Shown here piece by piece: positions 38,054-57,982 of a stretch of 64,000 nt of DNA. This DNA comes from Escherichia coli 042. Lineage in GTDB: Bacteria > Pseudomonadota > Gammaproteobacteria > Enterobacterales > Enterobacteriaceae. How positions within the stretch are numbered: position 1 is the first letter of the stretch; each line of letters opens with the position of its first letter. Under the pieces are notes generated by a model that made no database searches, was not told the DNA's origin, and saw only the letters and a program-made list of their open reading frames with translations. The translations under genes were made by a program, and so were the position numbers. The stretch is from the NCBI RefSeq assembly GCF_000027125.1, contig NC_017626.1, one strand, 5' to 3'.

Positions 38054-38077
38054 CGTGTACATAGAGGTGTACATAAT
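38054..38077. repeat. Left direct repeat (attL core)
   Basis: CGTGTACATAGAGGTGTACATAAT, 22 of 24 identical to the right repeat; itself a GTGTACATA tandem; more GTACA motifs follow at 38085–38108. Confidence 0.75.
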
Positions 38078-38134
38078 GACTTTCATGTACATTGCTTTAT
38101 GTACACACCCATATTCGATATTCAGGTATTCGCA

Positions 38135-39394
38135 ATGCCAAAACTCACAGATATGCAGATCCGCGCATGGATAAAGGCGGGAGACAGATTTGATGGCAAG
38201 GCAGACGGCAACGGCCTTTATATTTGCTACCCAAAAAACTACACAGTCCCGTTCTGGCGATTCCGCTATAAGCTCGCAGGAAAGCAGCGGGCTATGGTTA
38301 TAGGCTCTTACTCCGAACTGTCACTATCAAAAGCCAGAGAAACAGCAAAAGAGCTGTCAGCCAGAGTTGCTCTTGGCTATGACGTAGCAGCAGAGAAACA
38401 GGAACGAAAAGCTGAAGCACTGGCAAAAATGGAGGCTGAGAAAAACGCCATGTGCGTTTCAGATCTGGCCGCCGAATACTTCGAGCGCCAGATACTTCCA
38501 AGATGGAAACATCCCGATATCCTTCGCCGGAGAATTGATAAGGATATTAACCCCTGCATTGGGCATATGAAGGTGGAGGACGTTAAGCCACGCCACATTG
38601 ACGACATGTTGAAAGGTATCGTTGACCGAGGAGCACCAACGATAGCAACAGATGTATTACGCTGGACACGCCGTATCTTTGACTATGGGATAAAACGCCA
38701 CGCTCTGGAGATAAACCCTTGTTCAGCGTTTGAAGTATCTGATGCTGGTGGTAAAGAGGTTTCCCGCGACCGTTGGCTAACTCGCGATGAGCTTATCAGG
38801 CTATTCGAAGCTATGCGCACCGCAAAAGGATTCAGCCGCCAGAACGAACTGACATTTAAGCTATTGCTGGCACTATGCGTTCGTAAGATGGAGTTATGCG
38901 CCGCACGATGGGAAGAGTTTGATTTAGATGGTGCGGTATGGCATTTGCCGGAAGAACGCAGCAAAAACGGAGACCCTATTGATATACCTCTACCTTCCCC
39001 AGCCGTTGAATGGTTGAGAGAGCTACACACCTTTTCATGTAATAGCGCATGGGTGCTTCCAGCCAGGAAGATGCAAAACAGAATGATCCCACATATTCAG
39101 GAAAGCACTTTGCCCGTAGCACTGGCTAAGGTTCGCGCCGAAATACCGGATGTGCCTAATTTCACGATTCACGACTTCCGACGCACCGCACGTACTCATT
39201 TAGCAGCGTTGGGTGTTGATCCTGTCGTGGCGGAACGATGCCTCAATCATCGCATTAAGGGCGTAGAGGGGATTTATAACCGCCATCAGTATTTTGATGA
39301 GCGTAAAGCAGCACTGGCACAGTGGGCTGATCTGCTGGTGGCACTGGAAAGCGGAAAAGACCACAACGTAACGCCTCTCAGAAGGGCGAACTAA
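38135..39394 (+). CDS. int: Tyrosine site-specific integrase (P4-like)
   Basis: Start taken at the internal Met (MPKLTDMQIRAWIKAG); C-terminal catalytic region with HDFRRTARTHL and GIYNRHQY motifs. Confidence 0.88.
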   Translation: MPKLTDMQIRAWIKAGDRFDGKADGNGLYICYPKNYTVPFWRFRYKLAGKQRAMVIGSYSELSLSKARETAKELSARVALGYDVAAEKQERKAEALAKMEAEKNAMCVSDLAAEYFERQILPRWKHPDILRRRIDKDINPCIGHMKVEDVKPRHIDDMLKGIVDRGAPTIATDVLRWTRRIFDYGIKRHALEINPCSAFEVSDAGGKEVSRDRWLTRDELIRLFEAMRTAKGFSRQNELTFKLLLALCVRKMELCAARWEEFDLDGAVWHLPEERSKNGDPIDIPLPSPAVEWLRELHTFSCNSAWVLPARKMQNRMIPHIQESTLPVALAKVRAEIPDVPNFTIHDFRRTARTHLAALGVDPVVAERCLNHRIKGVEGIYNRHQYFDERKAALAQWADLLVALESGKDHNVTPLRRAN

Positions 39395-39489
39395 CTGAAT
39401 AGATTGAGCCTAGCTCGACGGGGCGAAAAGCGGGAAGCCTTACCGCCTGGCTCAATCACAAAATAAGGCGCAGCGTAAAAGGTGACGCA

Positions 39490-40335
39490 ATGAAAAAACT
39501 ACCACCAAATCTCTTTTTCCGACTTAATAGAGCAGCAAATTTATTAGAAATAGAAGTCGATGATCTTCTACTTATGGGAGTATCAGGCTCTATATTTTTG
39601 AGCACAATAATTCACCAGTATGAAGGCGTACTCTATCAAGCGGGAAACTTGCCACCAGACCACGGCAGCAAAGACATAGAAAACTTATTATTTGGTTCTA
39701 TTATTTCTACTAGAGAAGATACCGAAAGATATCTAAATGAAGGTGTTTTCGATGGTATGAAGTGCTTAGCAAGTGGATTATGGCACGTTCCTAGTGATTT
39801 CATTGCTTCCCTTGCAGGGGTTAAGAGAGCCCCTGACATTCCACTCATATTCTCACCAGCATATATAAAAAAAGAACTAGATATCACATCAGGACGTTAC
39901 TTTTTCTACGATTTTCGCGAACATGATACCACCGTATCGTCTGTGGAAGATTTGTATATATCAAGACCGTGGGTTGAATATATAGCTGAAAGCATGGATA
40001 AAAATCAGCCAATACCCAGCATACTCCATTTGGGTTCACACGATCTTTATGAAAAGGAATTTAAAAACATAGAGCATGGAAATAGAGCACGACATAGCCT
40101 GAACCGTGAGAATAGCATTATGGCGTTGATTTATGTGAAACGGCACTATCCGGAAGAGTGCAAAGGGAAAAACGGGAAAGAAACCAACGAAGCGTGGGCA
40201 AACGCTACGATAGACCACTGGCCACATGTGGGTGGCGATTATGATGAACCATCTACAGATTATTTAAAGAAGATCATATCTGACATGGACAGATTGCCGG
40301 AAAAACGTACCACGGCAGGAAAGAAGAAATCATGA
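39490..40335 (+). CDS. Hypothetical protein, AT-rich orphan gene between int and alpA
   Basis: 281-aa ORF with markedly lower GC than its neighbours; no family recognised. Confidence 0.55.
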   Translation: MKKLPPNLFFRLNRAANLLEIEVDDLLLMGVSGSIFLSTIIHQYEGVLYQAGNLPPDHGSKDIENLLFGSIISTREDTERYLNEGVFDGMKCLASGLWHVPSDFIASLAGVKRAPDIPLIFSPAYIKKELDITSGRYFFYDFREHDTTVSSVEDLYISRPWVEYIAESMDKNQPIPSILHLGSHDLYEKEFKNIEHGNRARHSLNRENSIMALIYVKRHYPEECKGKNGKETNEAWANATIDHWPHVGGDYDEPSTDYLKKIISDMDRLPEKRTTAGKKKS

Positions 40336-40447
40336 TAATAAAATTTAGTATCGTGACAATAAAATTTACTGTAATTCACTTTTGAGCATGCACACCATTA
40401 AATACCCGTAACGAAGCAACAACTATCGCTAAGAGGTTACGGGAAGC

Positions 40448-55854: not shown

Positions 55855-56266
55855 TGCTCTCTCTGTTTTTGCAAATTACCCCTCACTTTGAAGGGATCGG
55901 AGCTATAAAAATGGTTTTAGGTACATTCCTCAAATTGAGGATTGTGGAAAAACCAATGGGGTAGCCTTTTCCCCCAATGGGGATTTTCGAAAGAATCAAT
56001 GGGTTAGGCCATCGTGCAAATTTGCACTCTGCCAGCCAACGCAATTTCTCGTTGGCGGAAATATCAGGTATTTACTGAACGAACGATCTACCAGTCTGTT
56101 CAGTTACCAGTTGCACATGGCTGTTTCATGTGAGGACGGAGTTTTTTTCGGACATCACTATTGGGTACAGCAATTTCGCGAGCAATACGCACGCGTAACA
56201 AATATGCCTAGCATCTTAGCTACGTGCTGACAAATTTGCGATACTTCCCATCCTGTAGTGTGTTTG

Positions 56267-56728
56267 TCACCCGTGCCTTAGAGTTTCATAATTCATAACT
56301 GCTATAGTGATCTCCAGCTTAGTCGTTTCAAGTATTTCTTCACATAAGACCAGATCATGAATGATGTTTTTGAGTAGCTCCTTATCGATTGCTCCATCAG
56401 CCACCCAAACTGCGATGTTTTCCATTTCTCGCACAAAAAGTTGTACACAATGGCCAAAACCATTTATCTCAAGAAAGTATGTTGAAAGGGCGATGCTTGA
56501 TCTTTTATTTCCGTCACTAAAAGCATGGAATTTATTGATTGCAAAGAACAAGTGACTTAGTTTGTCTACAAACCCGGGGTAATACCAGTCGTTTTGGATA
56601 TGCTCAAGGGCACTCTCCAGTACCCCTTGGTCTCTGATTCCGTGTAAGCCGCCTGTTTTCTCAATGATCCAATCATGAACCCGAATGGCGTGTTCAATAT
56701 CAAAATAATTGAATTGTATATCGTCCAT
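56267..56728 (-). CDS. Fic/Doc-family protein (death-on-curing-like toxin)
   Basis: 153 aa with motif HAFSDGNKRSSIA, matching the Doc-type variant of the Fic motif. Confidence 0.75.
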   Translation of the reverse strand: MDDIQFNYFDIEHAIRVHDWIIEKTGGLHGIRDQGVLESALEHIQNDWYYPGFVDKLSHLFFAINKFHAFSDGNKRSSIALSTYFLEINGFGHCVQLFVREMENIAVWVADGAIDKELLKNIIHDLVLCEEILETTKLEITIAVMNYETLRHG

Positions 56729-56736
56729 TGATCCCC

Positions 56737-57750
56737 CTATCGGTCTTTTAGTCTTTTGAACACTTCTAGGGTTTCTGGATCGTTCAGGCGTTCTTCAAGT
56801 GATTTACTTTTCTCACCCAAGAAACGTTCAAAGTCTCCTTCAGGTACAGCTCGCACATATGCTTCCAGTTTTTCATGTAAAGCATCGCGAAAACATAAGT
56901 CTCGGCTTGCCATTTTCGTTCGCACATCAACCAACATTGGTTCATATAGAGGATGTTTTTCCATAGTGGTTAATATGGCTTCAGCTTCTTTGTATGTGAG
57001 TTTCCTACCTATCTGGAGTGACTTTTGTTTTATCTCATGAGCCAAACCAGCTTCGAAACTGGCAATCAGCGTCAACACTTCAGAGTACATAGTGTCACGT
57101 ATTTTATCGTGCTGATGGAGTTTTAATACGCTTCTGTACTCATTGGCATTTTCATGGAAAATGCTTTGATAAATCGCATTTGTTAGTTTTCCAAACTTCC
57201 AGCCATTGGCATCAACATATTCATTGAGGGCGTCAGTAAATTGCTTTCTGTAACTCTCTTCTTTAAAGGAGGCAACTAAGTAATCTTCGTCACGTTGGTT
57301 GATGAATTTCGTGTGACCACCGGCTCGTTCAGCAAGCGTATCAATCACTATATCTAACAGTCTAGTGCGAATTATTTTGGCTTGCTCGCTTTCGACAAGT
57401 AGCATTGCAAGGTTTAATACGGCTCTAAACTTAAACACTCCCAGCACTGAAGTCTTGGTACCCTCATTAATGAGGGCACCATCAGCTACTTCCTTGAATT
57501 CTTTTAGATTTTTACCTCTCAAAATGATGTAGCCATTGTTCTTCAGCTCATCCAAGTTGTTAGCTATATACCTCTCAATGGTCGCATCACTTACATCAAA
57601 CAGATCTACCAGTTGATTCTTGGTAAAAACTCTTTCTCCATCGAACTCAACTCCGCCAAGAGCAAGGTGTTTTTCAGCATGTCGGAGTGCATAAGAGTTA
57701 TTCAAAATATTTTGTCTGTCATGAGCAGAGGTTGTTAAATCTTTAGCCAT
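56737..57750 (-). CDS. RhuM-family-like protein, upstream partner of the Doc-like gene
   Basis: 338 aa from MAKDLTTSAHDRQ with an AGGTG Shine-Dalgarno; 8 bp from the Doc-like gene; family assignment from memory. Confidence 0.55.
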   Translation of the reverse strand: MAKDLTTSAHDRQNILNNSYALRHAEKHLALGGVEFDGERVFTKNQLVDLFDVSDATIERYIANNLDELKNNGYIILRGKNLKEFKEVADGALINEGTKTSVLGVFKFRAVLNLAMLLVESEQAKIIRTRLLDIVIDTLAERAGGHTKFINQRDEDYLVASFKEESYRKQFTDALNEYVDANGWKFGKLTNAIYQSIFHENANEYRSVLKLHQHDKIRDTMYSEVLTLIASFEAGLAHEIKQKSLQIGRKLTYKEAEAILTTMEKHPLYEPMLVDVRTKMASRDLCFRDALHEKLEAYVRAVPEGDFERFLGEKSKSLEERLNDPETLEVFKRLKDR

Positions 57751-57958
57751 GTTAACACCTATAAAGACGCAATAACGTGTATACGATAACATTGTTAATG
57801 CCAGTATGGGTAAGTGAACTTTTAGTCTGATTCATGCTGGTTTAGGATGGGGGTCTGAAAAACCGAATCTGGTACTATAACTATCTACATACCGACAATT
57901 TCTTACTGAGCAAACAGTGCTCGATAAATGCTCAATGATTGATAGCACCAGAAAAAAC

Positions 57959-57982
57959 CGTGTACATAAGGGTGTACATAAT
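57959..57982. repeat. Right direct repeat (attR core)
   Basis: CGTGTACATAAGGGTGTACATAAT, matches the left repeat at 22 of 24 positions. Confidence 0.75.

Follow-up and report, generated by a model that had tools for sequence, protein, structure and literature searches.

A 64,000-nt stretch of the Escherichia coli 042 chromosome (contig NC_017626.1; "the window" hereafter) carries a block of genes between yicC and dinD whose order can be read from Prokaryotic Genome Annotation Pipeline (PGAP) annotation of the 99.6%-identical copy in strain SCU-316, together with PHROG scans. The left half encodes a tyrosine integrase (Int), a 281-aa protein, AlpA, a 143-aa protein, an AntA/AntB antirepressor, a DUF4222 protein, an "ash" protein, six small open reading frames (ORFs) and a 918-aa primase-helicase. 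The right half encodes homologs of P22 gp14, gp7, gp20 and gp16, a small hydrophobic protein, an opposite-strand AlpA/Xis-like protein, PerC, and a Doc-type toxin with a 351-aa partner (Table 1). An earlier annotation made from the sequence alone (the original prediction) had listed int, AlpA, an antirepressor, a primase-helicase with iterons, variable cargo and a toxin-like pair as the content of a satellite resembling P4 or a phage-inducible chromosomal island (PICI). All of these are present, the toxin pair being of Doc type, and the satellite character is supported; missed in that account of the cargo were the P22-type ejection-protein cassette and membership in the family of the E. coli PICI EcCIMP1.

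Comparison with K-12 MG1655 bears out the original prediction that yicC and dinD are adjacent there: the two genes are neighbors, 220 bp apart, and the block is absent. The yicC-dinD block is a real mobile island of 20.1 kb, integrase-borne and missing from K-12. Relative to the common K-12-type empty site, the insert runs from 37947 to 58057 (20,111 bp, 47.1% G+C). These are not the ends first proposed, which gave about 19.9 kb bounded by a 24-bp imperfect direct repeat. The repeats themselves are as described: the left copy, CGTGTACATAGAGGTGTACATAAT at 38054-38077, and the right copy, CGTGTACATAAGGGTGTACATAAT at 57959-57982, lie on the same strand and are identical at 22 of 24 positions. Searching the window with the 24-mer returns the first exactly and the second with two mismatches, while 0 of 100 shuffles yield two matches. 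The K-12 junction, however, reads ...ATCGAATAA followed directly by CTCGTAACGCC and contains zero copies of the 24-mer; the sequence CTCGTAACGCCAATTC, which stands directly after the yicC stop codon in K-12, begins at 58058 in the window. Also missing from K-12 are the 107 nt that separate the left repeat from the yicC stop codon and, beyond the right repeat, 75 nt (57983-58057) made up of a 60-nt spacer and the 15-nt attR core; both flanks are therefore part of the insert. The idea of an integrase-borne island missing from K-12 thus stands, with an extent that reaches beyond the repeats on both sides.

A survey of 5,426 complete E. coli genomes shows the K-12-type junction in the majority. 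To represent the empty site with a single repeat copy that the original prediction expected, a query was constructed from the yicC end, the 107 nt, one 24-mer, the stretch that follows the right repeat through the attR core, and the dinD side. At a coverage of at least 80%, it finds such a site at 0 places in the 5,426 genomes. The K-12 alignment confirms an empty site, but one in which the predicted repeat copy does not exist. The top match of the query is instead the attP of a circular sibling element (NZ_LT599831.1). The right boundary is fixed independently by strain U15A, in which the island is 99.8% identical over the aligned stretch, the chromosome has no dinD, and divergence from the window sets in directly after the TAA of the core. 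It follows that dinD is not universal at the locus. (Past the TAA, the U15A sequence, L012 5429-5780, reaches the region upstream of yicG after about 180 nt that are unrelated. A dinD deletion caused by the island was considered and rejected; the flank is a different one, without dinD, and begins immediately past the core.)

No tRNA or tmRNA gene is found in a scan of 30000-64000, in agreement with the original prediction, which had concluded that the site is intergenic and unusual. The insertion site is in fact the 3' end of the yicC coding sequence, its last 21 bp. Since PICIs in yicC, with drifting identity blocks, have already been reported (bioRxiv 10.1101/2022.07.18.500453), the site is an ordinary one. 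An insertion between yicC and dinD is also mentioned in passing elsewhere (PMC10050402).

The 21-bp identity block at the yicC end is shared by K-12 attB, by the attP of E. coli NRZ14408, and by the attL and attR sites of six loci. Its attL copy is always intact (in the window and five further loci), and its attR copy varies in length, from 15 nt (the window and SCU-316) through 19 nt (two islands) to the full 21 nt (another two). At core position 6 a T/C variant matches between attL and attR within a genome, C/C in the window and T/T in SCU-316. Such common single-nucleotide variants (GATCC at both sites in the window, GATTC at both in SCU-316) are suggestive but not decisive as to the position of strand exchange, and no crossover position is claimed.

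The arrangement of the joined site can be read from the NRZ14408 record itself (NZ_LT599831.1, "phage_14408_2", 19,226 bp), in which the order is ejection gene, cargo, PerC, junction, int, and so on through the primase to the ejection genes. In alignment with the window, the two ends of the record meet base to base inside the gp16-like gene, which shows it to be a sibling element in circularly permuted form. Its attP consists of a right-end-type 24-mer, 60 nt, CAGATTCAGAATATCGAATAA, 107 nt, a left-end-type 24-mer, the inverted motif, and int, where the 21-bp block is the yicC end with one synonymous difference from K-12. The two 24-mers are 212 bp apart, start to start, on opposite sides of this yicC-like core. 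Repeats that stand on opposite arms of one att site in the excised form have the layout of arm-type sites rather than that of a crossover core, and we conclude from these alignments that the 24-mers are probably paired arm-type integrase sites inside the island, not its ends. To take them instead for the attL and attR crossover sites of a 19.9-kb island at an intergenic position would account for their being direct, nearly identical and near both ends. It is scarcely credible, given that the empty site holds no copy in K-12 and most E. coli, that the 107 nt and 75 nt outside the repeats are missing from K-12 as well, that the circular record retains both 24-mers around its core, and that the corresponding paired repeats of EcCIMP1 lie inside experimentally mapped ends.

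Each 24-mer is a pair of 9-bp GTGTACMYA motifs, situated 107 nt (P' arm) and 60 nt (P arm) from the core. Chance would give 0.36 copies of the 9-mer GTGTACATA in the 64-kb window; there are five, all of them at the two repeat places: two in each 24-mer, plus one inverted at 38098-38106. The original prediction had seen an internally repeated motif and made it the att core; the repetition is real, but the motif lies outside the core, on the att arms. The left cluster stands 29-81 nt upstream of the int start codon and is kept in four other loci (L005, L007, L008 and L009) despite diverged flanks. Arm alignments show GTGTAC..A..GGTGTAC to be invariant on both arms, including those of strains A17 and MB53 with their strongly diverged surroundings, and the GTGTAC pairs are unchanged in islands where int DNA identity to the window falls to 75-87%. 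Further invariant blocks of the P' arm are the T-run of a terminator with GTTATCATG, the block AAAGCGCA, and the inverted GTACAC. The terminator is a hairpin at 37983-38006, just 3' of the yicC stop codon, that a terminator scan scores as bidirectional; it would replace the terminator of yicC displaced by the insertion.

The protein that recognizes these motifs is most likely Int, whose Arm-DNA-bind_3 domain occupies residues 4-90, ahead of the central and catalytic domains; the assignment follows from the position of the motifs, their conservation, and analogy. As in a lambda-type attP, the core lies between arms with arm-type sites that are short and repeated, and one set overlaps the region upstream of int, although motif sequence and spacing are specific to the integrase family of the window and the arm-site role is here read from sequence. 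The overlap suggests that int is probably autoregulated. The same boundaries would also be compatible with GTGTAC motifs that serve as operators of AlpA, of alpA_1 as an Xis-type directionality factor, or of an int repressor. The left cluster is placed as an operator might be, upstream of int; the island encodes two helix-turn-helix (HTH) proteins of the AlpA/Xis family; and int, alpA and the motif are exchanged together as a module in the sampled loci. Sites for directionality factors are usually found on one arm only in a lambda-type attP. Here the motifs are on both arms, as is typical of arm-type Int sites, and Int possesses a domain dedicated to arm DNA, so that the operator explanation is an unlikely one.

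By sequence and architecture the island is a member of the EcCIMP1 group, hence of a known kind at a known site. EcCIMP1 is a 19,963-bp PICI found at tRNA-Thr in E. coli MP1, with ends fixed by sequencing an attP PCR product. Its excision, circularization and transduction occur only with the P22-like phage Kapi1, and they require its own int and alpA but not alpA_1, which supports excision of the helper and not of the island (Pick, Stadel & Raivio, ISME J 2025, PMC11773190). The element at the MP1 locus is of the same size class (19,963 vs 20,111 bp) and has the same gene order. In gene-by-gene protein alignments (BLASTP), identity is 99% for the antirepressor, the primase and the gp14-like and gp7-like proteins, and 100% for alpA_1. 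Both elements have the isrK/C4 RNAs, duplicated iteron clusters, and a PerC gene at the right end. EcCIMP1 likewise has paired repeats with a 12-bp period on both att arms, with a different motif, ATGGGGGTACTTWTGGGGGTAT. On one arm this motif lies about 65 nt from the TCCTATTATC core; on the other it stands just ahead of int, and an inverted GGTACCCCCA is found beside the int start. The features by which EcCIMP1-like elements are recognized recur in the island: the antirepressor-ash-primase core, DUF2824 and "DNA transfer" genes downstream of the primase (with gp20 and gp16 types swapped), and int with alpA at one end opposite alpA_1 with perC at the other (int and alpA not being orthologous). 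For helper-dependent mobility, what is seen is only the circularly permuted 19,226-bp sibling record with its attP.

Some of the differences between the two elements are in genes known to vary, int, alpA and perC being variable among the EcCIMP1-like set (PMC11773190). Their integrases are 29% identical and their AlpA proteins 36%, hence the different sites, the yicC 3' end here and tRNA-Thr next to proA in EcCIMP1. The gp20 proteins diverge past residue 55. The gp16-type protein of EcCIMP1 has an extra lytic transglycosylase domain; the one in the window is without that N-terminal domain and shows no BLASTP similarity to it. The window also has the Doc-type PDC-M59 pair as right-end cargo and an extra 281-aa ORF after int.

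General features of a PICI are found: an integrase, a regulator, a primase with an iteron origin, flanking att repeats, and no lysis or capsid genes. The int-alpA-primase/rep-ori layout is that of classical Gram-negative PICIs such as EcCICFT073 and EcCIEDL933, two characterized E. coli elements set beside EcCIMP1 in PMC11773190. The island differs from them in carrying podovirus ejection-protein genes in place of a detected packaging-redirection gene. PHROG and NCBIfam scans reveal no such gene (TerS, Rpp or capsid-size), the models for Rpp, TerS and capsid morphogenesis not having been searched individually, and a packaging-redirection module is likewise noted as missing from EcCIMP1. Mobilizable genomic islands of Vibrio (MGIVchUSA1, MGIVflInd1) are also inserted at the yicC 3' end by a tyrosine recombinase, but they are conjugatively mobilized through SXT/R391 integrative and conjugative elements and have unrelated content (PMC5704250).

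Much about the island recalls satellite P4: an integrase with the arm-binding domain (Arm-DNA-bind_3), AlpA, a C4/CI-type RNA, the "ash" annotation, a large primase-helicase with a nearby origin, and a variable defense slot near one end. A P4-type satellite dependent on a P2-like myovirus helper is nevertheless very improbable. PHROG scans covering every ORF of 50 aa or more in the conserved part reveal no sid, delta, psu or epsilon homolog, and a 19-mer for P2/P4 cos has no match with up to three mismatches. With capsid-size and cos functions absent, membership among the P4 satellites is not upheld. The structural genes that the island does carry are those of podovirus ejection proteins, and the prototype EcCIMP1 is mobilized by a P22-like phage. 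By analogy with that prototype, the helper of the island in the window is probably a P22-like podovirus as well.

The ejection genes, which are under purifying selection, are the most interesting feature of the island. All four have full-length PHROG matches to their P22 counterparts. Between satellite copies the ratio of non-synonymous to synonymous substitution (dN/dS) is 0.1-0.2 (0.12-0.21 for gp20, with 76 synonymous and 66 non-synonymous differences between the window and strain AHM8C212RI; about 0.2 for gp16), which indicates that the genes are maintained. Among phages, they are closest to P22-like podoviruses: gp14 and gp7 DNA is 81-90% identical to that of Kapi1, Louie and vB_EcoP-720R6, while the gp16 protein has 66% amino acid identity to phages N7 and HZ41 and 32-39% to Sf6-type and other phages. 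The AHM8C212RI variant has only the gp20 and gp16 homologs, plus two unassigned ORFs, and across the three variants compared (the window, EcCIMP1 and L005) gp20 and gp16 homologs are always present and those of gp14 and gp7 optional. Between the window and EcCIMP1 a mosaic break falls after gp20 residue 55, with the remainder of gp20 and the whole of gp16 replaced. Strain EC-10 combines int and alpA of the tRNA-Thr type with the ejection cassette of the window at 99%, which means that the int/att module and the gp20-gp16 module reassort.

Four consecutive P22-type genes in P22 order might be thought the residue of a decayed P22-like prophage, but the chance of this is minute. Among the ORFs scanned there is no other P22-type virion gene and no lysis gene, and with only the gp14-7-20-16 homologs present the island does not qualify as a defective P22 prophage. 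The cassette is placed between a satellite origin and satellite cargo. It is found (at a coverage of at least 80%) in 180 of the 5,426 genomes, and the cases examined (the window, L001, L003 and L010) share the same satellite context at two att sites. Purifying selection on the genes, and a family prototype that is a functional satellite, tell against decay too.

What such a cassette would do is a more tentative matter. Foreign ejection proteins can substitute for the native ones of P22, and mutations that escape SieA exclusion map to the C-terminal regions of P22 gp20 and gp16 (PMC10461980). The swap of gp20 and gp16 between satellites affects the same two proteins, so the cassette could permit entry despite exclusion of the SieA type. 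It is possible, though we would not favor it over its negation, that satellites carry their own ejection proteins so that particles built by the helper around satellite DNA get a delivery conduit of the satellite's choosing. This may serve entry into SieA-protected cells, lysogens of the helper included; alternatively the proteins may poison helper virions or take part in the superinfection immunity that depends on EcCIMP1. A literature search for satellites carrying ejection proteins found no such report.

Taken together, the evidence leads us to regard 37947-58057, with a probability of roughly 80%, as a 20.1-kb PICI of the EcCIMP1 family, a satellite of P22-like podoviruses, inserted by its own integrase in the end of yicC. 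Boundaries, core, attP arrangement, motif conservation and family membership in this model come from sequence comparison; we infer the motif-binding protein, the identity of the helper, and the activity of the copy in the window. In the model, the tyrosine integrase would insert the island into the last 21 bp of yicC (core CAGATYCAGAAYATYGARTAA), and the island would supply an equivalent yicC end, with the terminator just past the stop codon substituting for the displaced one. The excised circle would have the core flanked by its arms, as 24-mer, 60 nt, CAGATYCAGAATATCGAATAA, 107 nt, 24-mer. By extension from EcCIMP1, the isrK/C4 RNA module and AlpA would keep the island quiescent in the absence of an active helper. 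Once one is present, AlpA and Int would excise the island, the TOPRIM-DUF927 primase-helicase would replicate it from the GTTGGTTCA iterons, and it would be packaged in helper capsids. Its cargo would consist of the full-length gp14, gp7, gp20 and gp16 homologs and a variable right-end slot, here with a Doc-type candidate defense pair.

Several observations weigh against the model or parts of it. Binding of the motifs by Int is an indirect assignment; they could instead be sites for a recombination directionality factor or some other regulator. The circular form from NRZ14408 is an assembly record rather than a demonstrated episome. The attR core of the window, at 15 nt (as in SCU-316), is 6 nt short, and the copy in the window may therefore excise poorly or not at all. 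As to the helper, a Kapi1-like prophage is present in only 2 of 21 strains with EcCIMP1 (PMC11773190). No sequenced phage has near-identical ejection genes, the best matches being 66% amino acid identity for gp16 and 81-90% nucleotide identity for gp14 and gp7. A 22-mer for P22 pac has no match with up to three mismatches.

Table 1. Features of the yicC-dinD island and its flanks (window coordinates)
Feature	Coordinates	Strand	Basis or remarks
yicC, target gene	37083-37946	+	ORF list; PGAP annotation of 99.6%-identical SCU-316 locus; intact, 287 aa
attL core CAGATCCAGAATATCGAATAA	37926-37946	+	Last 21 bp of yicC including stop codon; identity block common to attL, attR, NZ_LT599831.1 attP and K-12 attB
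P' arm	37947-38134	+	Terminator scan; alignment of five diverged attL arms; holds TTTTTTGTTATCATG and AAAGCGCA (invariant)
Left motif cluster	38054-38106	+	Two direct GTGTACATA, 12 bp start to start; degenerate ATGTACAT at 38085-38092; inverted GTGTACATA at 38098-38106
Tyrosine integrase	38135-39394	+	Arm-DNA-bind_3 + Phage_int_M + Phage_integrase; 29% identical to EcCIMP1 integrase
int-alpA RNA motif RF02996	39403-39469	+	Rfam 60.6 bits vs gathering 35.8; directly after int stop codon
Variable-slot ORF, 281 aa	39490-40335	+	No family match
alpA (HTH regulator/excisionase family)	40448-40651	+	36% identical to EcCIMP1 alpA
143-aa ORF	40651-41082		No informative family match
AntA/AntB antirepressor	41095-41928	+	99% identical to that of EcCIMP1
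isrK (42478-42555) and C4/CI-type antisense RNA (42618-42705)	42478-42705	+	Rfam 67.1 and 79.5 bits, both above gathering
TOPRIM-DUF927 primase-helicase	45127-47883	+	915/918 aa identical to that of EcCIMP1
Replication-origin iterons	47909-48019	.	3 + 3 convergent GTTGGTTCA around AT-rich spacer, directly after primase gene
P22 gp14-like (DUF2824, phrog_651)	48646-49107	+	99% identical (152/153) to that of EcCIMP1
P22 gp7-like ejection protein (phrog_598)	49101-49778	+	99% identical (224/225) to that of EcCIMP1
P22 gp20-like ejection protein (phrog_917)	49778-51199	+	First 55 aa match that of EcCIMP1, rest diverged
P22 gp16-like ejection protein (phrog_770)	51199-53304	+	Full length; no BLASTP similarity to EcCIMP1 gp16-type
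Small hydrophobic protein, 139 aa	53323-53742	-	Hydrophobic stretches read by eye in translation; no family match
alpA_1 / Xis-like HTH	54706-54891	-	52/52 aa identical to EcCIMP1 alpA_1
Mirror-image iteron cluster	55410-55530	.	80% identical over 124 nt to first cluster, inverted; upstream of perC
PerC-family regulator	55567-55854	+	52% identical to that of EcCIMP1
Doc/Fic-type toxin (56267-56728) and 351-aa partner (56737-57792)	56267-57792	-	PADLOC PDC-M59A/B, 5.7e-105 and 8.2e-30; TIGR01550 DOC_P1
P arm	57959-58042	+	Right 24-mer + 60-nt spacer to core; alignment of five attR arms
attR core remnant CAGATCCAAGAATAA, 15 nt	58043-58057	+	6 nt short of 21-nt block; attL/attR comparison; U15A divergence
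dinD, right chromosomal neighbor	58267-59103	+	ORF list; PGAP; K-12 comparison

Some of the remaining features bear on regulation and replication. The isrK/C4 pair sits inside an "ash family" ORF (42097-43164), and a PHROG "repressor" match spans the same nucleotides. This coincidence suggests that part of the ash protein family may be a translated RNA locus. Because the pair is common to EcCIMP1 and to the yicC island of strain 54 (L007), which has a P4-family primase, regulation probably has a P4/P1-type RNA component. The two iteron clusters are 7.4 kb apart and bracket the ejection cassette together with alpA_1; the duplication is present in EcCIMP1 too (L004 3036-3156 and 11576-11696). 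The second cluster could be an additional origin, serve to control copy number by handcuffing, or act as an operator of perC. Scans for sigma-70 promoters in the att arm and in the region from origin to cassette returned nothing and are too crude to interpret.

Other features belong to variable positions. The slot after the int-alpA RNA motif, filled here by the 281-aa ORF, holds genes of 216, 316, 293 and 260 aa in sibling islands. At the right end, the Doc pair matches the PADLOC candidate defense system PDC-M59A/B over its full length, and siblings have Abi-family or other genes in its place, which is consistent with a variable defense slot. The 139-aa hydrophobic protein is encoded right after the gp16 homolog. 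In P22, sieA presumably follows gene 16, and a SieA homolog was considered; there is no sequence support for it. Pfam, PHROG, PADLOC and NCBIfam scans of the 281-aa, 143-aa and 139-aa proteins give no informative match.

The integrase and its site extend well beyond this one island. With a coverage threshold of at least 80%, int plus the left arm (75-100% nucleotide identity) is found in 318 of the 5,426 genomes, the antirepressor-to-primase stretch in 351, and the whole island with its flanks in 34. In six of six chromosomal loci examined (SCU-316, AHM8C212RI, OkiPb01692, strain 54, MB53 and A17), int adjoins yicC. At least three types of island use the integrase/att family of the window: one with the TOPRIM-DUF927 primase and ejection genes, one with a P4-family primase and a single-stranded DNA-binding protein (SSB), and one with a RepA-type helicase and DUF2213/ProQ-like genes. 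Several satellite lineages thus have the yicC 3' end as their docking site in common. (L007, L008 and L009 denote the yicC islands of strains 54, MB53 and A17. The smaller MB53 island, with P4-family primase and SSB, has a dinD paralog of its own just inside the right end, L008 31296-32120, beside the chromosomal dinD.)

The main value of these results is a corrected annotation: the island is real, it belongs to a family described in 2025, it occupies a known PICI site, and its 24-bp repeat probably reflects internal att-arm architecture. They provide an att map (core, arms, candidate arm-type sites and terminator) for a yicC-specific integrase present in about 6% of complete E. coli genomes. 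They also add to the published annotation of EcCIMP1 the isrK/C4 RNA module, the int-alpA RNA motif, and the duplicated, mirror-image iteron clusters. Genes known as "DNA transfer/packaging candidates" are recognized as a P22 gp14-7-20-16 ejection cassette that selection maintains and in which gp20 and gp16 are swapped as modules. This cassette offers a testable idea, that of a satellite acting at the step of DNA entry; if true, it would represent a class of satellite-helper interaction that acts at DNA ejection.

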